The notes below the pieces were generated by a model. It had not been told where the DNA came from and did no database searches. It saw nothing but the letters and a program-made list of their open reading frames with translations. 19,450 bases of DNA, taken from UHGV virus genome UHGV-1270568. The stretch is one strand, 5' to 3'. Source of the stretch: a virus. Shown here in pieces: positions 2,892 through 19,270 of the stretch. Positions within the stretch are counted from its first letter, which is position 1; each line of letters starts with the position of its first letter. The translations under genes were made by a program, and so were the position numbers.

Positions 2892-3944
2892 TTAGCTGTC
2901 GGCGAACTTCAGGCCAGTGACCATCGCGCACTTGCCATAGTCTTCAACGACATAAGCGTCATTGATGGACTGGTAGGTGGCGATGCGGTTGTATTCCGGC
3001 TCGTCTTTCATCAGGCGACGCATTGAACCTTTCTGCCAGTAAATCGACAGGTTGTTGAACGAGGTGATCAGCATCGTTGCATCCGGGAAGAACGGCGCAA
3101 GGAACACGCCCAGCCCGCCAATGGTGCGCGATGACAGGATGAGCTGCCCGGCAAGTAATTCCGCATTGGGATTCTGGCCGCTGATGCTGTTCAGCACGGG
3201 CAGACGCAGCGAGTTAAACAGGTTGCGCCCCATAATCACCGCGAGGTCGTCAGCTTCCTTGTGCCATTCATCCAGCAGGGATGAGCGCGCATCCTGTACC
3301 AGAGCATCGGCATTCGCATACTTACCCGCGTGCGCCACAGTGTTGTCCATGTTGCGGGAGGTCAGCGTCACGTCATTCATTACGCGCTCGCTGGCATCGG
3401 TTCTGATGTGCTCCAGCCAGCCCACGTTAACGTCCTGAAGCAGCTTGTTGGTGTGAAAATCAGACTCGTAGGCGTGGGATGTGCCGTTAAAGCCAATCAT
3501 GATGCGATCAAGCGCTACCTGCCGGGCGATCTGTGTACTGATACGGGACTGAAAATCGCTGTGGGCCGCCCAGGTATCAAGCTGTGGGTACGAAATAAAG
3601 GTATCGTAGTTCACCTGTTCGCACTGGTACTGACGAGACTTCATATCGATCACGTTATTCGGGTTACGGCGTTTGATGCCGTCATAACTGCTATTCGTGC
3701 GCGCAATTGGCCCGGTGGTGTCCAGGAGGATTTTTTCGCCTTTCTGGTCGGTCACGCCGATCACGTTAATTCTTTTCGTAAATTCGGTACTTTCCTTTGA
3801 GGCGTTTTCAAAACGCTGCTGCACCGCGGGTTCCACGGTAAATCGCGATACCAGTGCAGATACCGGGATATTGTTAAGCGACGCCTGCTGCGCCATATAG
3901 CAACCCAGCTTGTTGCGGGTAATATCTGACATCACCAGATTCAT
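2892..3944 (-). CDS. N: Major capsid protein, P2 gpN-like
   Basis: 350 aa; motifs FTVEP, GFNG, DVNVGWL, LSIYWQ and YVVEDY correspond to P2 gpN; AAGGAG RBS upstream; lies between O and M. Confidence 0.9.
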   Translation of the reverse strand: MNLVMSDITRNKLGCYMAQQASLNNIPVSALVSRFTVEPAVQQRFENASKESTEFTKRINVIGVTDQKGEKILLDTTGPIARTNSSYDGIKRRNPNNVIDMKSRQYQCEQVNYDTFISYPQLDTWAAHSDFQSRISTQIARQVALDRIMIGFNGTSHAYESDFHTNKLLQDVNVGWLEHIRTDASERVMNDVTLTSRNMDNTVAHAGKYANADALVQDARSSLLDEWHKEADDLAVIMGRNLFNSLRLPVLNSISGQNPNAELLAGQLILSSRTIGGLGVFLAPFFPDATMLITSFNNLSIYWQKGSMRRLMKDEPEYNRIATYQSINDAYVVEDYGKCAMVTGLKFADS

Positions 3945-4958: not shown

Positions 4959-6710
4959 ATGATTCAGGACGCTTTTGTGCGCCAGCGTGCGCGGCAACTT
5001 TACTGGCAGGGTTATCCGCCCGCAGAAATATCACGTCTGATGGGAATAAACCCGAACACGATTTATGCGTGGAAAAAACGCGACCAGTGGGATGAAACGC
5101 CACCCGTGCAGCGTGTCACGCAGTCCATCGATGCGCGCCTCATCCAGCTTACTGAAAAACAGAATAAAACAGGCGGTGACTTTAAGGAAATAGACCTGCT
5201 GACCCGGCAGCTTAAAAAAATGCATGATGGCCAGCCGGATGCGACGGCCACAGGAAAGAAAGGTCGGGCGAAAAAACTCAAAAATCATTTCACGCCGGAA
5301 CAGATTGCCGCACTGCGGGAAAAAATCATCAGCAGGCTGGAGTGGCATCAGCGGGGCTGGTTTGACTCCCTGACCCTTTGCAGGGAAGCCGGGATACGTA
5401 ACAGGATGATCCTGAAATCCCGACAGATTGGCGCGACCTGGTATTTTGCACAGGAAGCACTGCTGATGGCGCTGCGTGACGATGTGGCGCAACCTTACCA
5501 GCGTAACCAGATTTTTTTGTCTGCGTCGCGTCGTCAGGCGTTCCAGTTTAAAAGCATTATTCAGAAGGCCGCGGCTGAAGTTGATGTGGAGCTGAAAGGG
5601 GGCGATAAAATCATCCTCTCCAACGGCGCAGAGCTGCATTTTCTCGGCACTTCTGCTGCGTCGGCGCAGTCCTATACGGGCAATTTTTATTTTGATGAAT
5701 TTTTCTGGGTCAGTCGCTTTGCTGAACTGCGCAAGGTGGCTGGCGCTATGGCAACCCTCAGCGGATTGCGGCGCACCTACTTCTCCACGCCATCCACCGA
5801 AACGCACGAAGCATACGCCTACTGGAACGGCGACCGCTGGAACGAGAAAAAGGCCACGCATAAACGCCAGCGTTTTTCTGTGGACTGGAAAACGCTGCAT
5901 AACGGGCTTATCTGCCCTGACCGGACGTGGCGGCAAATTGTCACGCTGGAAGATGTGGTTAATCACGGCTGGAAACACACCGATATCGACGAAATTCGTG
6001 ATGAAAACACCGAAGACGAGTTCCTCAATCTCTATATGTGTGAGTTTGTCCGCGAAGGGGAATCGGCATTTAACCTGAATATCCTGATTGGCTGCGGTGT
6101 TGACGGATACGACGACTGGAAAGACTGGAAACCTTTTGCTCCCCGCCCGATGGGGAATCGTCCGGTATGGATTGGGTATGACGCAAACGGCAGCAGTGGC
6201 AACGGCGACAGCGGCGCTGTATCCGTGGTGGTTCCTCCGGCTGTTCCTGGTGGCCGTTTTCGAACGGTGGAGACGCGACGCGTTCAGGGGCTGGAGTTTG
6301 AAGAACAGGCCAGAGTCATTGAAGAGTTCACGTGTCGCTACAACGTGGAACACATCGGCATTGATGTGACGGGCGGGAACGGGGAGGCTGTTTATCAGAT
6401 AGTGAAACGGTTTTTCCCTGCCGCTATTCCGTACACCTTCACGCTGTCATCAAAACGGTCGCTGGTACTGAAAATGCTGCAAATAATGCGTGCCGGGCGG
6501 TGGGAATACGATCGCGCCGAACGCGAGCTGGTCGCGGCCTTTAACGCCGTGCGTAAGGTGAAAACACCGGGCGGCTTTATCACTTACGAAACGGACCGTG
6601 CGAGGGGGATCAGCCACGGCGACCTTGCGTGGGCAACCATGCTTGCTGTCATTAACGAACCGATTGGCGGCGAAGGAGAAAACGAGCGTTTCACGGTTAT
6701 GGAGTTCTGA
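4959..6710 (+). CDS. P: Terminase large (ATPase) subunit, P2 gpP-like
   Basis: 583 aa; GGGGAG RBS; N-terminal RQLYWQGY...ISRLMGINPNTIYAWKKRDQWDE resembles the gpP N-terminus; stop overlaps the Q start (TGATG). Confidence 0.9.
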   Translation: MIQDAFVRQRARQLYWQGYPPAEISRLMGINPNTIYAWKKRDQWDETPPVQRVTQSIDARLIQLTEKQNKTGGDFKEIDLLTRQLKKMHDGQPDATATGKKGRAKKLKNHFTPEQIAALREKIISRLEWHQRGWFDSLTLCREAGIRNRMILKSRQIGATWYFAQEALLMALRDDVAQPYQRNQIFLSASRRQAFQFKSIIQKAAAEVDVELKGGDKIILSNGAELHFLGTSAASAQSYTGNFYFDEFFWVSRFAELRKVAGAMATLSGLRRTYFSTPSTETHEAYAYWNGDRWNEKKATHKRQRFSVDWKTLHNGLICPDRTWRQIVTLEDVVNHGWKHTDIDEIRDENTEDEFLNLYMCEFVREGESAFNLNILIGCGVDGYDDWKDWKPFAPRPMGNRPVWIGYDANGSSGNGDSGAVSVVVPPAVPGGRFRTVETRRVQGLEFEEQARVIEEFTCRYNVEHIGIDVTGGNGEAVYQIVKRFFPAAIPYTFTLSSKRSLVLKMLQIMRAGRWEYDRAERELVAAFNAVRKVKTPGGFITYETDRARGISHGDLAWATMLAVINEPIGGEGENERFTVMEF

Positions 6711-8532: not shown

Positions 8533-9024
8533 TCACTCTCCTTTGATGCGAATACCAGTGGTACTCATTATCCTGATTTCCCAGAGCACACGAGGAACAC
8601 CACCGTTTCCGACTGGATCGCGTTTACTCCGCAGGGCGACGCTTGATTCCGCCCAGCTTTTTCTTGGAGGAAGCGCTTTCACACGAACAAAACCAGCTGC
8701 GCGAAGAGATGCTCCTGATTCATCTGCCCGGGTGTACGTAATACAACGTTGATAACCCATAGCTTTTGCTGCCCGCCAGACAGCACCATAAAGCGCGCTG
8801 TTAGCGTTGCGTTCTCCTGTGGTACATGTGCGATTTACTTCAAGCGTTAATCCATCATCCAAATGTCGTGCAACAGGTCGACCGGCTGTCGCCACACCTA
8901 TCAATTCTCCGGCATCATTTCTCAGACCAATGCTGAATTTATGCCCCACCGGGGGTTTATTGTGTCGGTGATGTCTGGATATAAACGCCTTCGCAACACG
9001 AAGAGTAACCGGTGAAATTTGCAT
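8533..9024 (-). CDS. Hypothetical 163-aa protein, possibly GNAT-like fold; second gene of the cargo cassette
   Basis: Track ORF 8533..9063; preferred start is ATG 9024 (MQISPVTLRV...) with AAGGAGAG RBS. The segment ...NANSALYGAVWRAAKAMGY... and the C-terminal ...SGASLRAAGFVRV... loosely resemble GNAT motifs; this assignment is weak. Ends ...IRIKGE encoded by the linker repeat. Confidence 0.55.
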   Translation of the reverse strand: MQISPVTLRVAKAFISRHHRHNKPPVGHKFSIGLRNDAGELIGVATAGRPVARHLDDGLTLEVNRTCTTGERNANSALYGAVWRAAKAMGYQRCITYTRADESGASLRAAGFVRVKALPPRKSWAESSVALRSKRDPVGNGGVPRVLWEIRIMSTTGIRIKGE

Positions 9025-9026
9025 TC

Positions 9027-9602
9027 TCACTCTCCTTTGATGCCAATGTTTACAGACTGGCAAGCCTCTTTGAGCACCCAGTCAACAGCGTCTTTCCATG
9101 CTCCGGTTTCGACTGGCGGATTCTCACGCTTTACCTGTTCATAGAAACGCACCGCTCTAACCAGTCCATCTGACGGTTTTGCCTGTAGTGCAGCCTGAGC
9201 TATGCGGTATGCCTGGAGCATACGGGCGTCGTTGGCTTTTTTGCGGTTGATGTTGGCTATGTCCGGCTGTGCGTTTGTGTCGAAATACTCGCTCAGTGGC
9301 AGGGTGACAACCACATCCACCTCCTGTGGCGTGATGCCTGATTTGACCAGCGCGTGATGAATGGCAATGACATTCACATCGCTGTACTGGTATTGCGTGT
9401 CAGTCGTCTGGACAAAGCGATCGCTGACCGGATCAAAACCATAGCGCACGCCATCAAGCATGTAGTTCGCGGGCTGCGTGCCACCGAACGGCGCAGACCA
9501 TTCCGACTTGAAGCTGTTCGGGCTGATGGCGTTGCGGCGTTCGCCGTTCTCAGTCCATGCCAGCTTGGTGTTGGTGGAGCCGTCATCGATACAAATTTTC
9601 AT
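9027..9602 (-). CDS. Chimeric protein: N-terminal 120-odd aa ParM/StbA-like (actin-fold ATPase N-terminus) fused to an unrelated 68-aa C-terminus
   Basis: MKICIDDGSTNTKLAW...ISPNSFK.EW...YSDVNV.A.HHAL..SG....EVD.V.T.PL......N.QP...NI.RKKAN tracks the N-terminus of plasmid R1 ParM as I remember it (phosphate-1 motif DDGSTN), then diverges. No ParM C-terminal half in any frame. AAGGAA RBS. Ends ...NIGIKGE from the linker repeat. Confidence 0.6.
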   Translation of the reverse strand: MKICIDDGSTNTKLAWTENGERRNAISPNSFKSEWSAPFGGTQPANYMLDGVRYGFDPVSDRFVQTTDTQYQYSDVNVIAIHHALVKSGITPQEVDVVVTLPLSEYFDTNAQPDIANINRKKANDARMLQAYRIAQAALQAKPSDGLVRAVRFYEQVKRENPPVETGAWKDAVDWVLKEACQSVNIGIKGE

Positions 9603-12507: not shown

Positions 12508-12873
12508 TTACTTCGTCATGCCATTCAGGGTGTCGCGGCAGACTGTAGCCAGCCGCTGAATTTCCAGCACGGTGTCTTCTGTGTCGGCATGGCGATGTGT
12601 GATGCGGATGCTGTCGGCAATCACATCGACGATTGCAGAGGATGGGCGCTGGTAAATGCCAATAACGGACGGGGTGCCACCTTCAATGCGGTAAAGCCTG
12701 TAATTTTCCTCATGGCTGTCAATCATGTAGCGACCATCAATAACAATCTTTCCGTCAGCGAGCTGCGGTACAGGCAGGGATTTCAGGTACATGTCATAAC
12801 GATCACGCACGCGAGCGGCAAGATCACGTTCTGTGTTGAGCAGGTATTCAAGAAAGTCGTTGGCGAGAATCAT
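12508..12873 (-). CDS. Hypothetical 121-aa early protein immediately upstream of A
   Basis: Strong AAGAGGA RBS 8 nt before ATG 12873; stop 6 nt before the A start; no family recognised. Confidence 0.6.
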   Translation of the reverse strand: MILANDFLEYLLNTERDLAARVRDRYDMYLKSLPVPQLADGKIVIDGRYMIDSHEENYRLYRIEGGTPSVIGIYQRPSSAIVDVIADSIRITHRHADTEDTVLEIQRLATVCRDTLNGMTK

Positions 12874-12945
12874 TGCGGCAATCCTCTTGCTACAGATGTG
12901 CGAAGGCCTCCCGCCGCAAGGTGCAGGAAAGGCCTGGAACAGGAA

Positions 12946-13176
12946 TTAATGGAGTTTGTTTTGCTGCTGGATGAGCTGCTGAAGCTCGCGCAGATCATCC
13001 GCCAGATAGCTGAAAACAGAGGCGGAATAAATGTTTGATAGTGCGTGGCTGCGCTCATGCAGCATATTGATGTGCATGATTTGCGCGACGCGTGATGCGC
13101 GGAAAAGTCTGCGGTTGATTTCAGTCTGGATGTGACGACGCTCCGCGATAGCGCGGTGCTGTTTGCGGTTTGCCAT
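12946..13176 (-). CDS. Hypothetical 76-aa basic protein
   Basis: MANRKQHRAIAERRHIQTEINRRLF...; GAGAGG RBS; first gene after the 13177..13543 non-coding stretch. Confidence 0.5.
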   Translation of the reverse strand: MANRKQHRAIAERRHIQTEINRRLFRASRVAQIMHINMLHERSHALSNIYSASVFSYLADDLRELQQLIQQQNKLH

Positions 13177-13233
13177 GATGTGGCCTCTCTGTTAGTTAGT
13201 TTTGAAAACTCACCATCCAGAGGTTCCAAGCTC

Positions 13234-13314
13234 GGGGTGGTGAGACGTACAGGGTTGGAACTACCGGCTAACAGAGGACCCGGCCCAGCTGATGCTGGCC
13301 CTGTACGCCCCACC
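13234..13314. other. Highly structured non-coding element in the leader of the 76-aa / 121-aa / A unit
   Basis: Plus-strand CGTACAGGG (13246..13254) pairs with CCCTGTACG (13299..13307), extended by GGTGG/CCACC, enclosing an inner hairpin CCAGC-TGAT-GCTGG (13285..13298). Confidence 0.4.
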
Positions 13315-13353
13315 ATAATTCTGACGCGAAAAAGACGTGGCGATACGGCACGC

Positions 13354-13376
13354 ACAAAAAAACCGCTGGCGCGGTT
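13354..13376 (-). terminator. Minus-strand Rho-independent terminator
   Basis: Minus strand AACCGC-GCCA-GCGGTT followed by TTTTTTTG. Confidence 0.55.
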
Positions 13377-13512
13377 GTGCGCTCTGTTAGTCTGCGGGGT
13401 TCCAATCCCGGCACCCGTTTTATGAGGTGCAGCGGAAATGTAACCTGACTGATTGCGGCATGGCAAGCGGTTTTTTTGTGAGAACGGCATACTAAAAAAT
13501 CCTGATACTGCT

Positions 13513-13537
13513 CCGGCCAGCGGTTTTCACTGGCCGG
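13513..13537 (-). terminator. 8-bp GC-rich hairpin 3 nt after the SPFH gene stop
   Basis: CCGGCCAG / CTGGCCGG stem with 9-nt loop; the T-run on the minus strand is 12 nt distal, so efficiency is uncertain. Confidence 0.4.
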
Positions 13538-13543
13538 GTTTAA

Positions 13544-14374
13544 TTACTTCACCGGAACAAACGGAACAGCGGTGTTACTGGTCATGTATTGCGGTAGCGT
13601 GCCGTTCCATTTGTTAATCGCTTCCAGCTCCATAACGCCGGGATTCTGGCGCAGAGCTTCACCGCGTAAACGAATGGCGTCGGCTTCAGCCTGGGCTTTT
13701 GTGCGAATGGCATCGGCTTGTCCGGCAGCTTCTGCGCGCAGCATGTTGGCTTCAGCTTCGCGTTGCTTGACTTCCTGTTCACGTTGCAGGGTTTTCTGGT
13801 TTGCCGTGACTTTGGCATTAATGCTGTCGATAACGGTTGGCGGGTATTCCGGCTTACCCACATAAGAGAGGCTCATTACCTGAATGCCGATAGGTGTCAT
13901 TTCTGCCTGAATGTCTTTAAGTGCTGAATCCAGCAGTTCAGACTTGCCACCGTCGATAAATTTATCGGTGGTCATTTTGCTGGCCAGTCGGTTGAGTGCG
14001 TCGGCGATCTTCTGGCGCAGGTCAGTGTCGGTAATGTCATCCACGCCTTTGCGGTAGGTCTGAAACACTGTAGTAACTTTGGATGGATCAACCTTGTAGG
14101 CCACACCGATGTGATAGCCGATGGTTGTGCCGTCACTCATCTGAAAGCTGAACGGCTCATCGTAGGTCTTCATTTGTTTGAAGGTCGGGAAGATGTAAAC
14201 CTCGGTATTCCAGCCAGTCCAGTAGCGGCCAACGCCAACCACTTCGCCAACGCCTTTGTCGTCGCCCAGCTTGTTGACTTTGATGCCCACATTACCTGGC
14301 TCAACGCGATCGCAGCCAACCAGCAGGATGGCGGCAAAAAGCGGGAGAATCTGAAAGAGTTTGAATTTCTTCAT
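13544..14374 (-). CDS. SPFH / band-7 (prohibitin, HflC-like) domain lipoprotein
   Basis: 276 aa; N-terminal signal peptide with lipobox LLVGC; C-terminal Ala/Glu/Arg/Gln-rich coiled coil (QREQEVKQREAEANMLRAEAAGQADAIR...) typical of SPFH proteins; start overlaps upstream stop (ATGA). Confidence 0.7.
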   Translation of the reverse strand: MKKFKLFQILPLFAAILLVGCDRVEPGNVGIKVNKLGDDKGVGEVVGVGRYWTGWNTEVYIFPTFKQMKTYDEPFSFQMSDGTTIGYHIGVAYKVDPSKVTTVFQTYRKGVDDITDTDLRQKIADALNRLASKMTTDKFIDGGKSELLDSALKDIQAEMTPIGIQVMSLSYVGKPEYPPTVIDSINAKVTANQKTLQREQEVKQREAEANMLRAEAAGQADAIRTKAQAEADAIRLRGEALRQNPGVMELEAINKWNGTLPQYMTSNTAVPFVPVK

Positions 14375-14574
14375 TGTTTAATTTCCTTGATGTACTTACT
14401 GAAAAGGCGAACAACGCCTGCCGGGTACAGCATGGCAATGAAAATGCCCAGCAATACCAGGAAAGAGCTGTCTGATGAAATCATTCGGGGGAGTACCCCT
14501 ACATACAGAATGAGAGAGACGAGGACGCATACTAGCGCCCATGCATATGCACGAAACCATGTCTTGTTGTTCAT
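14371..14574 (-). CDS. Small membrane protein (67 aa, two predicted TM helices) coupled to the SPFH gene
   Basis: Track ORF 14371..14706 overlaps the upstream gene; preferred start is ATG 14574 (MNNKTWFRAYAWALVCVLVSLILYVGVLPRMISSDSSFLVLLGIFIAMLYPAGVV...) with AAGGG RBS. Confidence 0.55.
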   Translation of the reverse strand: MNNKTWFRAYAWALVCVLVSLILYVGVLPRMISSDSSFLVLLGIFIAMLYPAGVVRLFSKYIKEIKQ

Positions 14575-14584
14575 GTTGCGGCCC

Positions 14585-14881
14585 TTACTGGTTAAGGAAA
14601 AAATCGAAAACCTTGTCAATGCGTTGCAGCAGCTCTTGCTGTATTGCTTCCGGCGTTTCCGGTTCGCCTGGCGCCTCCAACGTCGCGCAGAAATCAGCGA
14701 TTTCATGATGGAGTGTCAGGCGAATGGCAGGGGCCGTGGTTCTGGCGTGCTCCAACTCATCCAGCAGTGCCAACACCACTGACGGTTGTAAGCTCACGCG
14801 AGATGGTAGTGATTCATGGGGGGGTATTCTTTGCACGGCAGTCGCCAGTTCGCGTAGTTCCTGGTGGTTGATGATGCTCAT
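14585..14881 (-). CDS. Hypothetical 98-aa early protein
   Basis: ATG overlaps upstream stop (ATGA); no family recognised. Confidence 0.5.
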   Translation of the reverse strand: MSIINHQELRELATAVQRIPPHESLPSRVSLQPSVVLALLDELEHARTTAPAIRLTLHHEIADFCATLEAPGEPETPEAIQQELLQRIDKVFDFFLNQ

Positions 14882-15123
14882 GCTCTGGCTTCCTTCAGTA
14901 ACTGGTTAAACATATTGGTAAGTGGATTGCCGCACCCGAACGGCATCGGGTTTACCTGGTAAGAGAAGCGACCACCTGTTTTGCGCTCTTTTCTTATGAC
15001 TGAACCGCTACGCCAGAGTCGGCGTAACTCCGCATTAATAGCTGTGGTTGGGGTATTCAGTGCTGCGGCGATTTCTCCACCGCTACACCCCGGATTGGCG
15101 GCGATATAGTCCAGAATGGTCAT
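14878..15123 (-). CDS. Small putative winged-helix DNA-binding protein (81 aa)
   Basis: Preferred start is ATG 15123 (AGGAG 8 nt upstream, ATGA overlap with upstream stop); ILDYIAANPGCSGGEIAAALNTPTTAINAELRRLWRSGSV looks like a helix-turn-helix / wing. Confidence 0.5.
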   Translation of the reverse strand: MTILDYIAANPGCSGGEIAAALNTPTTAINAELRRLWRSGSVIRKERKTGGRFSYQVNPMPFGCGNPLTNMFNQLLKEARA

Positions 15124-15323
15124 CTGCATGACTCCTGTACCTGTCGGATAAGGTTCACCCGCACCACGTTGGTGGCGCAGAAGTAAGTGCCGTCAGTGAG
15201 GTAGATGTGGTGTGCATCCTTTTCTGAACGGTGTTTGTCGATTGTGGTAATCAGGCGTTCGTCGACTTCGTATTCACGTCCTCTGGAGGTAAAACGAACG
15301 ACAGGAAAGTGCTTAATTGCCAT
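15120..15323 (-). CDS. Hypothetical 67-aa early protein
   Basis: Track ORF 15120..15383 overlaps the upstream gene; internal ATG 15323 (MAIKHFPVVRF...) is the likely start. Start is uncertain. Confidence 0.35.
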   Translation of the reverse strand: MAIKHFPVVRFTSRGREYEVDERLITTIDKHRSEKDAHHIYLTDGTYFCATNVVRVNLIRQVQESCR

Positions 15324-15630
15324 TGCGCCCACTGTTCTGTTTCTGGCGACGGATGCGGGATAGCTGGATTTCCAGCTCTTCAATGTGGTCGTGCAACTCG
15401 TCTATTTCGGCGAAAAGCGAATCAAGGGTTGATGAGAGTTCCGTTAACAGGGCCTTTGCCGCCAGTGCAACAGTAAACGTGCCGATGTCGCGTTCCGGGT
15501 CAATTTCACTAACAAGTGTTCTGGTTAGTTCAAGAGCGACGGGGAGCGCCTCTTCCAGTTTGCAATCCTGGAGATGAGCAAGAATAGTTAATGCGTCGCA
15601 TTGAATTTTGTCTTCTTTATTTTGTTTCAT
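15313..15630 (-). CDS. Hypothetical 105-aa acidic helical early protein
   Basis: Complete ORF in operon context; no family recognised. Confidence 0.5.
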   Translation of the reverse strand: MKQNKEDKIQCDALTILAHLQDCKLEEALPVALELTRTLVSEIDPERDIGTFTVALAAKALLTELSSTLDSLFAEIDELHDHIEELEIQLSRIRRQKQNSGRNGN

Positions 15631-15720
15631 CGTTGCCGCCTTATTTGAATGTACAAAGCCCTCCGCGAGTGCGGATTGTTTTCATGTTTTCTTATTTAAT
15701 CGTGTGTTTTATTTGTGCTG

Positions 15721-18470: not shown

Positions 18471-18833
18471 GTGAAGTTTCATTTAGATGAACTTAAAAGA
18501 ATGGCAACGCTCGATAATTTTGCGCGTTTTCTCAATGAGTCGTCTACGAATGAAAAATGTTTGTCGTGTGGCGATACGGATATGTACATGTATTTGACGA
18601 ATATTGTTGAGGTGGGGCCTGAGCCGAAAACTGCTGAGGAGTGTGATTTAGGCACTCTTGTTATGCTTGATTATATCGGTCCATTTACTGGGTATCCGGG
18701 ATATGAGGGACATGATCGGGAAAATATCCATAACTATGAATTCCGACTTACCTGTAACAGATGTGGGTTTGTTCATCGTTACTCGGCCCGGGCCTTTATG
18801 AACTGGGTAGGCAAGCAGGGTGATGAGAAGTGA
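18471..18833 (+). CDS. Hypothetical 120-aa protein with two CxxC pairs (putative zinc ribbon), coupled to int
   Basis: GTG start 3 nt after the int stop with GGAGG RBS; CLSCGD ... CNRCGF; AT-rich codon usage compared with the phage core. Confidence 0.5.
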   Translation: MKFHLDELKRMATLDNFARFLNESSTNEKCLSCGDTDMYMYLTNIVEVGPEPKTAEECDLGTLVMLDYIGPFTGYPGYEGHDRENIHNYEFRLTCNRCGFVHRYSARAFMNWVGKQGDEK

Positions 18834-19270
18834 TGGCAGAGAATGTTGCACATATTTCGCGGTTCAGAAAAAAGAAAGAGAATGCCTATAATGTATCCAA
18901 CAACCAAGTAACAGGAAGTGGTAATGATGGAGGTGATGGCATGAATGACGACCTTGAACGGCGGGTCAGTTGCCTGGAAAGTGATGTGACTGAAATCAAA
19001 AACAACCTGATTACTCTCACCACAAGAAGCGAATCCTTTGCTACCAAATCTGATGTACTGGAGATTCGCGAAGGGTTGAGGCTTGAGATGGCAGAATCTC
19101 GCCAATCCCTGAAGTCTGAGATGGCTGATTTACGCCAGTCTCTGAAAGTTGAGATGGCTGAGCATCGTACTGAACTTCAGAAATCATTTGCAAATCAGAC
19201 TTGGTTACTCACAGGTATTGTCCTGTCTGCGATGGCCGTGCTTGTGGCTGTGGTTACTGTTATTAAGTAA
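18833..19270 (+). CDS. Coiled-coil protein with C-terminal TM anchor and three tandem 11-aa repeats
   Basis: Start either ATG 18833 (overlaps upstream stop, TGATG; the track's GTG 18830 is an alternative) or internal ATG 18941 with strong GGAGGTG RBS. Repeats EMAESRQSLKS / EMADLRQSLKV / EMAEHRTELQK (33-bp DNA repeats), then WLLTGIVLSAMAVLVAVVTVIK. Confidence 0.5.
   Translation: MAENVAHISRFRKKKENAYNVSNNQVTGSGNDGGDGMNDDLERRVSCLESDVTEIKNNLITLTTRSESFATKSDVLEIREGLRLEMAESRQSLKSEMADLRQSLKVEMAEHRTELQKSFANQTWLLTGIVLSAMAVLVAVVTVIK

Follow-up and report, generated by a model that had tools for sequence, protein, structure and literature searches.

A conserved gene pair encoding a predicted SPFH lipoprotein and a two-transmembrane protein in the early operon of a P88-like prophage

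Introduction

Two overlapping genes in the early operon of a P2-family prophage raise the question of why a phage should encode an SPFH (Band 7) protein that is predicted to face the periplasm of its host. The genes lie within a 19,450-nucleotide stretch of the virus genome UHGV-1270568, referred to throughout as the window, which by its sequence is a P88-like Escherichia coli prophage (Xuanwuvirus, Peduoviridae, P2 family). One gene encodes an SPFH lipoprotein precursor of 276 amino acids and the other, located directly upstream, encodes a membrane protein of 67 amino acids. A sequence-only reading of the window had described the former as an SPFH lipoprotein with a lipobox and a C-terminal coiled coil that is translationally coupled to the two-transmembrane protein, inserted into the early operon and followed by two terminator-like hairpins. 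It had also suggested that the pair could act in a prophage by mediating superinfection exclusion or by remodelling the host membrane.

Phage genome papers have repeatedly remarked on SPFH proteins encoded by viruses, but none has explained them, and two of these papers call the role of the phage protein unclear (PMC8540360, PMC13239085). Our search of the full-text literature found no functional study of the phage SPFH lipoprotein family, and the "band 7" of the phiCbK paper refers to gel bands and not to SPFH. The only experimentally studied prophage SPFH protein found in that search is PM0222 of Pasteurella multocida, an "HflK/C-like" protein of 25-35 kDa for which activation of Toll-like receptors 1/2 (TLR1/2), presence in outer-membrane vesicles and a role in mouse virulence have been described, all of which concern the animal host and not phage biology (PMC9872710). 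PM0222 is likened here to the phage family by its published description rather than by sequence comparison.

The two genes are not new in themselves. Phage P88 has essentially the same genes at the same genomic position, annotated as gp11 (membrane protein) and gp12 (lipoprotein/SPFH), with gp12 being 99.6% identical to the SPFH protein of the window, and the PHROG database contains both families as phrog_1130 and phrog_200, but lists them separately and not as a pair. What is new here is the recognition of a conserved and in places fused pair, which leads to a structural hypothesis of a periplasm-facing SPFH ring with a split anchor. Sequence comparisons establish the two genes as a conserved, sometimes fused unit across unrelated phages, and on balance we favor the view that they constitute a horizontally mobile cassette whose products form an SPFH scaffold, facing the periplasm, on the inner membrane of infected cells.

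Results

The two genes are coupled, conserved as a pair and naturally fused in some phages

Both open reading frames (ORFs) are preceded by an AGG-type Shine-Dalgarno sequence, and the stop codon of the small gene overlaps the start codon of the SPFH gene in an ATGA arrangement (Table 1). This overlap indicates translational coupling of the small gene and the SPFH gene, in agreement with the sequence-only reading. A 4-nt overlap is common to 57 of 78 close loci in IMG/VR, with the remaining loci overlapping by 20 nt. Relative to P88, the SPFH gene exhibits 28 synonymous codon changes and a single non-synonymous change, and relative to phiP27 there are 63 synonymous and 7 non-synonymous changes, while the small gene differs from that of P88 by 7 synonymous and 5 non-synonymous changes. 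Because the codon changes are mostly synonymous, both ORFs behave as coding sequence, and by the same measure the SPFH gene is under strong purifying selection.

The pair is retained in 78 of the 80 closest IMG/VR loci. A two-transmembrane ORF of 62-78 amino acids is also located directly upstream of the SPFH gene, either overlapping it or a few bases away, in phiP27, Pastis, Cyrano and Fraca. Word-indexed searching with the 67-aa protein did not extend beyond close relatives, and distant partners were therefore sought at the loci with a custom hidden Markov model (HMM) that has phi1026b, Mx1 and GAP31 among its seed members. In Pylas, SSU5 and Paxi the best match to this HMM immediately precedes the SPFH gene, with weaker upstream matches in Hali and Ruegeria V10 (1e-5) and a marginal one in Lak-B9 (E 0.019). 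Profiles rich in transmembrane segments can give compositional false matches, and the Lak-B9 and Ruegeria matches are tentative. In Hena1 and GAP31 the matching gene is one gene removed from the SPFH gene.

Natural fusions provide additional insight into how the two proteins are related. Among 140 full-length distant representatives of the SPFH family, 20 have an N-terminal extension that in 19 cases matches the small-protein HMM (~14% fused), and all 20 extended proteins have a Cys at the lipobox position. The order within the fusions is partner, basic linker, signal-peptide helix, lipobox and SPFH domain, all in frame (proteins P0142-P0262). One fusion, P0001, was verified on two contigs (L104 4001-5044), and its AlphaFold2 model, with a predicted local distance difference test (pLDDT) score of 82.7, contains a hairpin followed by a third helix that corresponds to the signal peptide and then the SPFH domain. 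Such fusions are topologically seamless only if the partner has both termini in the cytoplasm (N-in/C-in) and the SPFH domain is periplasmic, and together with the ATGA coupling they imply a 1:1 stoichiometry. The fusions suggest a polyprotein from which cleavage by signal peptidase II could yield both products. On contig L104, a Tad2-like (anti-Thoeris) gene at 5729-6304 is located ~700 bp downstream of the fused SPFH gene, which by gene content places this fused module in an accessory or counter-defence neighbourhood.

The downstream protein is a predicted lipoprotein of the SPFH superfamily

A profile search of the 276-aa protein against Pfam returned Band_7 (PF01145) with an E value of 7.6e-31 and a score of 107.9 bits against a gathering cut-off of 23.6. 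The match involves residues 23-209 of the protein and covers positions 2-176 of the 176-position profile (175/176). Nearly the whole protein (residues 2-275) also matches the phrog_200 "lipoprotein" profile (E 4.9e-112). The N terminus begins with MKK followed by a hydrophobic core that leads into a lipobox of MKKFKLFQILPLFAAILLVG-C21-D22, an L-V-G-C sequence that fits the pattern [LVI][ASTVI][GAS]-C. A Cys is present at this position in 128 of the 140 full-length distant representatives, and the tripeptide C-D-R is nearly invariant among 20 enterobacterial homologues. In E. coli, an Asp at the +2 position of a lipoprotein leads to Lol avoidance and inner-membrane retention.

An AlphaFold2 model (pLDDT 74) has strands and helices across residues 21-176 that are followed by a single continuous helix of 65 residues (179-243) and a disordered tail. 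Sequence matches in the PDB are confined to the wall helix of HflK and the coiled coil of prohibitin-2, and in the model the long helix corresponds to the coiled-coil "wall" helix of SPFH cages. Beyond this helix there is a conserved C-terminal motif, K-W-N-G-x-L-P ... P-F, in which the W and G of KWNG are invariant in the alignment of the fusions. A Foldseek comparison of the model with the PDB gave full-length matches to the HflK/C, erlin1/2, prohibitin, stomatin, QmcA-YbbJ and flotillin cages, which share 14-18% identity with the lipoprotein; for HflK/C, erlin, prohibitin, stomatin and flotillin the probability was 1.00. A fold search of BFVD returned only unnamed Band 7/SPFH viral proteins. 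By sequence criteria the protein belongs to the SPFH superfamily and is a lipoprotein, such that the domain assignment and the lipobox of the sequence-only reading hold up, as does the C-terminal coiled coil in the form of a predicted long helix.

The small partner is a predicted helical hairpin with a conserved periplasmic turn

Hydropathy analysis of the 67-aa protein identified two segments, at residues 6-34 and 31-58, which can be divided into a first transmembrane helix (~9-28), a periplasmic turn (P29-S37), a second transmembrane helix (~38-58) and a basic C-terminal tail. An N-in/C-in topology is predicted because there are two transmembrane segments and basic ends. The corresponding part of the natural fusion is a helical hairpin in its AlphaFold2 model, so that the proposed pair of transmembrane segments is borne out by both approaches. 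In an alignment with partners from other phages the conserved part is the turn, which has the motif P-x-[LM]-[IV]-S-[SA]-x-[DS]. Residues 6-67 match the phrog_1130 "membrane protein" profile (E 1.6e-20). There is no Pfam or NCBIfam match, and PADLOC returned only PDC-M18B at E 0.008 with no domain passing threshold. Across unrelated enterobacterial phages the partner is only 20-48% identical, as compared to 75-93% for the SPFH protein.

The small partner gene is often left uncalled in genome annotation. For example, it is unannotated in the RefSeq record of TUM13770, which was produced by the Prokaryotic Genome Annotation Pipeline (PGAP), and in the records of phiP27 and Erwinia phage Pastis, while the records of P88, SSU5, Pylas and Cyrano do include it.

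The SPFH lipoprotein occurs in diverse temperate and virulent phages

By tblastn, 379 of 50,697 phage records encode the SPFH lipoprotein, and a large share of these records belong to virulent phages. Carriers include lambdoid and Stx phages, SSU5-type phage-plasmids, Ounavirinae and Pseudomonas Bruynoghevirus, as well as the virulent N4-like phages Pastis, Pylas, S6 and Paxi and the rV5-like phages GAP31 and Hena1. More distant carriers are Burkholderia phi1026b, Caulobacter phiCbK-like phages, Myxococcus Mx1, a Ruegeria phage and Prevotella Lak megaphages. Searching 1.84 billion cluster representatives exhaustively with HMMER recovered 221 relatives under a threshold of E<=1e-30 and 940 when this was relaxed to E<=1e-10. 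In phiP27, the Stx2 phages and Fraca the pair is located in the distal pL-side region beside xis and int, and in virulent N4-like and rV5-like phages it is found in regions of small genes and nucleotide-metabolism genes.

The pair is accessory cargo inserted into the early operon

Several complete E. coli chromosomes match a 1551-bp query (13400-14950) at 100% identity, among them that of TUM13770, in which the prophage adjoins btuC, and the query is 93.6% identical to phage P88 DNA. Outside this interval, positions in TUM13770 do not correspond one-to-one with those of the window. The minus-strand early (Pe/cox-side) operon begins with a cox-like gene, several small genes, a winged-helix gene and an Ead/Ea22-like gene, after which comes the pair. 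Beyond the pair on the same strand are the isrK small RNA (sRNA), the C4 antisense RNA, a "derepression" protein, an ORF of no assigned function and replication gene A.

A cassette of ~1.08 kb that includes the pair is missing from close Xuanwuvirus relatives, and relative to P88_4B11 and PhiR44_2 it constitutes a clean indel. The left junction is at the ATG and first codons of the small gene, 10 nt past the upstream stop codon, and the right junction is just upstream of the isrK promoter-like site, with the junctions sharing only a few bases around the ATG. ARAGORN found no tRNA and no recombination site was identified at the junctions; given this absence and the few shared bases, we ruled out a tRNA or integration-site origin of the insertion. 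Among 5,426 complete E. coli genomes, 145 have the cassette in this context and 925 have an empty junction, which gives the cassette a share of ~14% of P88-like E. coli prophage loci. In the Citrobacter phage Shae_phiSM (Xuanwuvirus), a gene for a 183-aa "DNA binding protein" occupies the cassette site (L096 1598-2149), where it is located between the Ead/Ea22-like gene and the isrK region. Since a different gene is present in Shae_phiSM, the genus appears to use this site for variable cargo. Judged by these comparisons the pair is accessory cargo at a variable site and not a core gene, as was originally suspected from the sequence.

A promoter scan of 12800-15700, using a crude consensus search, detected only the isrK promoter-like site and none upstream of the pair. 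Given that the insertion is at the ATG and that no promoter-like site precedes it, the pair is expected to be co-transcribed with the early lytic genes, and we infer that it is silent in a repressed lysogen and made after infection or induction. The suggestion that the pair acts from a prophage, by lysogenic conversion or by exclusion in the lysogen, is not favored, given that the pair lacks its own promoter and is common in strictly virulent phages; it may still exclude superinfecting phages in lytic growth or modulate a protease or channel. The two terminator-like hairpins also fared unevenly. There is a strong 10-bp GC-rich hairpin after the SPFH stop codon, but its U-tract (13494-13499) is ~13 nt further downstream, so this hairpin is not a canonical intrinsic terminator and may be weak or atypical; the second (13361-13376) terminates the isrK sRNA. 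The cassette was also considered as a moron, that is an autonomous cargo unit, and this was rejected as its own promoter was not found and its terminator is only the atypical hairpin.

Comparison with characterized SPFH systems

HflK/HflC (PDB 7vhq, 7wi3, 9cz2) resemble the phage protein in having a long wall helix after the SPFH domain and in the periplasmic orientation on the inner membrane that is predicted here, and they are the best structural match (7vhq, E 1.8e-13) at 16-17% identity. They differ in that HflK/C have an N-terminal transmembrane helix and two paralogues, whereas the phage system has a predicted lipid anchor, one SPFH gene and a 67-aa hairpin partner. The phage protein scores below the cut-offs of the HflK/HflC equivalogs TIGR01932 and TIGR01933 (24.8 vs 134.4 and 22.7 vs 159.4 bits, respectively), and by sequence it is not HflK/C. 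The prohibitin, erlin and stomatin rings are likewise built of proteins of ~270-300 amino acids with an anchor, an SPFH domain, one long helix and a short C-terminal cap (Foldseek E 5e-13 to 5e-12), but they have only 14-18% identity with the phage protein, are anchored differently and reside in other compartments.

SPFH-NfeD operons (QmcA-YbbJ, 8z5g; YqiJ-YqiK; Pyrococcus PH1511-PH1510) share with the phage pair an adjacent, co-expressed membrane-protein gene. In QmcA-YbbJ the transmembrane helices of the partner are inside the cage, which is the role proposed below for the 67-aa protein. However, the NfeD-type partner has an oligonucleotide/oligosaccharide-binding (OB) fold and the SPFH domain is cytoplasmic, while the phage partner has no OB-fold and its SPFH protein is predicted to be exported and lipidated. 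Additionally, in the phage fusions, unlike in SPFH-NfeD, the partner is N-terminal to the SPFH domain with the lipobox between them.

Features of the locus and its surroundings

The coordinates of the pair, its protein features and the adjacent RNA elements are listed in Table 1. In cassette-free phages the isrK/C4 elements directly follow the Ead/Ea22-like gene. A 76-aa protein of the "Derepression" family (PF25738) is encoded after isrK/C4 at 12946-13176 (minus strand), and the module is located upstream of replication gene A. This arrangement resembles the antirepressor control of the P1/P7 immI or Gifsy-1 IsrK type, here in a P2-family phage. In the records of P88_4B11 and PhiR44_2 an ORF for a ~205-aa "transcriptional regulator" is drawn over the isrK/C4 RNAs, and RefSeq places an "ash family" pseudogene at this position; neither annotation is likely to be genuine.

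Table 1. Coordinates of the gene pair, its predicted features and neighbouring elements
Feature	Position	Strand	Basis or remark
Small gene, 67-aa two-transmembrane membrane protein	14371..14574	-	ORF
SPFH/Band-7 lipoprotein precursor gene, 276 aa	13544..14374	-	ORF
ATGA stop/start overlap, 4 nt	14371..14374	-	TGA of small gene over ATG of SPFH gene
Predicted lipoprotein signal peptide and lipobox L-V-G-C, residues 1-21	14312..14374	-	sequence reading
Cys21, predicted lipidation site	codon 14312-14314	-	sequence reading
Asp22, +2 residue, predicted inner-membrane retention	codon 14309-14311	-	sequence reading
SPFH (Band 7) alpha/beta domain, residues 23-209	13748..14308	-	Pfam envelope
Predicted single long helix (65 residues), residues 179-243	13646..13840	-	AlphaFold2 secondary structure
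10-bp GC-rich hairpin after SPFH stop	13513..13537	-	promoter/terminator scan
~1.08-kb cassette missing from close Xuanwuvirus relatives	13481..14563	.	blastn and junction alignments
isrK promoter-like site	13437-13466	-	promoter scan; outside cassette
isrK sRNA	13356-13430	-	Rfam, 72.4 bits; outside cassette
C4 antisense RNA	13233-13320	-	Rfam, 78.5 bits; outside cassette
Small gene at another locus (L002)	3291-3479
Small gene at another locus (L004)	3255-3458

Several other genes of the window were noted. A ParM-like segregation gene on the minus strand (9027-9602) is cut down to its N-terminal domain of 191 amino acids (StbA_N, E 4.5e-64), while phage P88 by contrast has a full parM and a partition gene. 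An ORF that overlaps this gene downstream on the same strand (8533-9063) has a weak, sub-threshold match to the Mom family (E 1e-4). At the other end of the prophage, ORFs of 120 and 146 amino acids are located on the plus strand between the integrase gene and host btuC (18471-19270); they have no significant Pfam or PADLOC match and constitute unexplained prophage-end cargo.

Discussion

A proposed periplasm-facing scaffold with a split anchor

The hypothesis of an SPFH protein with a split anchor is put forward because the two-transmembrane partner is conserved, the coupling points to 1:1 production and the in-frame fusions keep the lipobox. According to this model expression of the pair would be confined to periods when the early lytic operon is active, following infection or induction. 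The SPFH precursor would be exported and lipidated at Cys21, with the Asp at +2 keeping the lipoprotein in the inner membrane, and its long helix would drive oligomerization into a ring or dome similar to those of HflK/C or prohibitin. The 67-aa protein, present in a 1:1 ratio, would serve as a detached transmembrane anchor or "fence", with its conserved periplasmic turn touching the membrane-proximal face of the SPFH domain. The resulting assembly would fence off a patch of the inner membrane during lytic growth.

A number of observations weigh against this model. In Bruynoghevirus Ab22, Erwinia MM7 and Caulobacter CcrSwift the partner HMM has no match next to the SPFH gene, and the SPFH protein can evidently work without a partner. 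An Arg at +3 may weaken retention by Asp at +2, in which case sorting to the outer membrane would be possible. There is also a widespread SSU5-type variant that lacks the lipobox Cys: protein P0118, present on 175 contigs of ~110 kb, a size typical of SSU5/Cyrano-type phage-plasmids, has a Tyr in its place (GIIGYDRVEPG) and therefore would not be lipidated, although it may keep an uncleaved signal anchor. A weak internal promoter that is active in lysogens is possible as well, the consensus scan being crude. Finally, oligomerization, lipidation, localization and contact with the partner are all read from sequence and from models of monomers.

Candidate purposes of the assembly

The assembly most likely controls an inner-membrane process for the benefit of the phage in lytic growth. 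As to which process, we rank a host inner-membrane machine such as FtsH first, a block to the entry of superinfecting genomes second and stabilization of the membrane until lysis third, and no single purpose is rated as better than rather unlikely.

The idea that FtsH is the target has also been raised in the Bruynoghevirus paper (PMC8540360). A phage SPFH ring would here mimic or replace HflK/C and cage FtsH from the periplasm, thereby altering the turnover of sigma-32, LpxC, membrane proteins and phage regulators during lytic growth. This is one purpose within the assembly model and not an alternative to assembly. HflK/C are the top structural matches of the phage protein as well as its only NCBIfam matches, and HflK is its bacterial sequence match in the PDB. 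To our knowledge, HflK/C are also the only characterized bacterial SPFH proteins that face the periplasm. FtsH is universal, which fits the spread of the family among phages of Gamma-, Beta- and Alphaproteobacteria, of Myxococcus and perhaps of Prevotella, and phage lambda CIII provides a precedent for phage interference with FtsH. However, the likeness to HflK/C is generic at 14-18% identity, with erlin, prohibitin and stomatin scoring equally well, the NCBIfam scores are far below their cut-offs, and the phage protein has neither the N-terminal transmembrane helix nor a second SPFH paralogue. A takeover of FtsH is a doubtful explanation when taken singly.

Superinfection exclusion, in which the pair would block genome entry or envelope penetration by secondary phages in a lysogen or early in lytic infection, appears to be about as doubtful. 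T4 Imm and Sp exert such exclusion early in lytic infection, and exclusion genes are typically found among small non-structural genes (T4 imm/sp, T5 llp), which is also where the pair is located in virulent phages. The predicted envelope location of both proteins fits such a role, as does the accessory, patchy distribution of the pair and its presence at a variable cargo site. Exclusion by a lysogen is unlikely, as the pair has no promoter of its own and belongs to a repressed early operon, and PHROG places neither protein in an exclusion family. Furthermore, known exclusion proteins have a narrow range and evolve fast, while the SPFH protein is highly conserved across unrelated enterobacterial phages and is recognizable in phages of distant phyla. 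A role in adsorption or DNA entry has been the subject of speculation in a 2026 phage paper (PMC13239085).

Broader still is the proposal that the pair is a general host-takeover device, a periplasmic cage that is made early by <1% of sequenced phages, spread over several bacterial phyla, and that captures an FtsH-like machine or seals the route of DNA entry. We regard this as somewhat less probable than either purpose considered singly.

Anti-phage defence or abortive infection, for example by a caged pore-former, is a very unlikely explanation. Variable sites of prophages often hold defence genes, and the small protein is holin-like in having two transmembrane segments, an N-in/C-in topology, a basic tail and the size of a class II holin or pinholin. 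Against this, PADLOC-DB 2.0 gave no match to the SPFH protein and only noise (E 0.008) for the small protein, the pair is common in virulent phages, and it is inferred to be expressed with the phage's own early lytic genes. There is no match to a holin family in Pfam or PHROG, and the lysis genes annotated in TUM13770 (holin, endolysin and spanin-type) are separated from the pair by >12 kb and lie past the head genes. A catalogued defence system was rejected after a PADLOC scan of both proteins and their neighbours returned nothing significant, and a class II holin or pinholin was set aside since the architecture is similar but there is no holin family match and the gene is not in the lysis cassette.

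More improbable yet is an SPFH-NfeD operon picked up from the host with the small protein as NfeD. A membrane-protein gene does sit beside the SPFH gene and the structural matches include the QmcA-YbbJ cage (8z5g), but the 67-aa protein is too short for an OB-fold, the SPFH domain is exported behind a lipobox while NfeD-type partners face the cytoplasm, and the closest relatives are the phage families phrog_200 and phrog_1130. An NfeD partner is also contradicted by the domain test, in which neither Pfam nor NCBIfam gave a match.

Equally hard to credit is that the SPFH protein is a serine protease or "membrane protease subunit", as labelled in the records of phiP27-type, Stx2, Pastis and Caulobacter phages, since Pfam finds Band_7 alone with no protease domain and a weak phrog "protease" match (E 3e-4) falls in the helical region; with no catalytic domain detected the label is wrong for this family, and it presumably derives from the old naming "membrane protease subunit, stomatin/prohibitin homologue". 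The same holds for a host-directed virulence lipoprotein such as PM0222, which has been described as activating TLR1/2 and contributing to virulence (PMC9872710), as a role in an animal host cannot explain virulent phages from soil, plant pathogens and aquatic habitats.

Implications for phage-encoded SPFH proteins

If the pair is indeed a general host-takeover device, this would provide the first assigned function for virus-encoded SPFH proteins. It would also be a case in which an SPFH protein is anchored in the membrane by a second polypeptide, which in the fused forms may be released by LspA. The window offers a tractable E. coli example, as it combines a 1.08-kb cassette with an inducible P2-like prophage and natural, isogenic-like relatives without the cassette. 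Should the client be FtsH or the route of DNA entry, the pair would represent a new type of device for host takeover or exclusion by phages and would serve as a compact model for how SPFH cages choose their contents.

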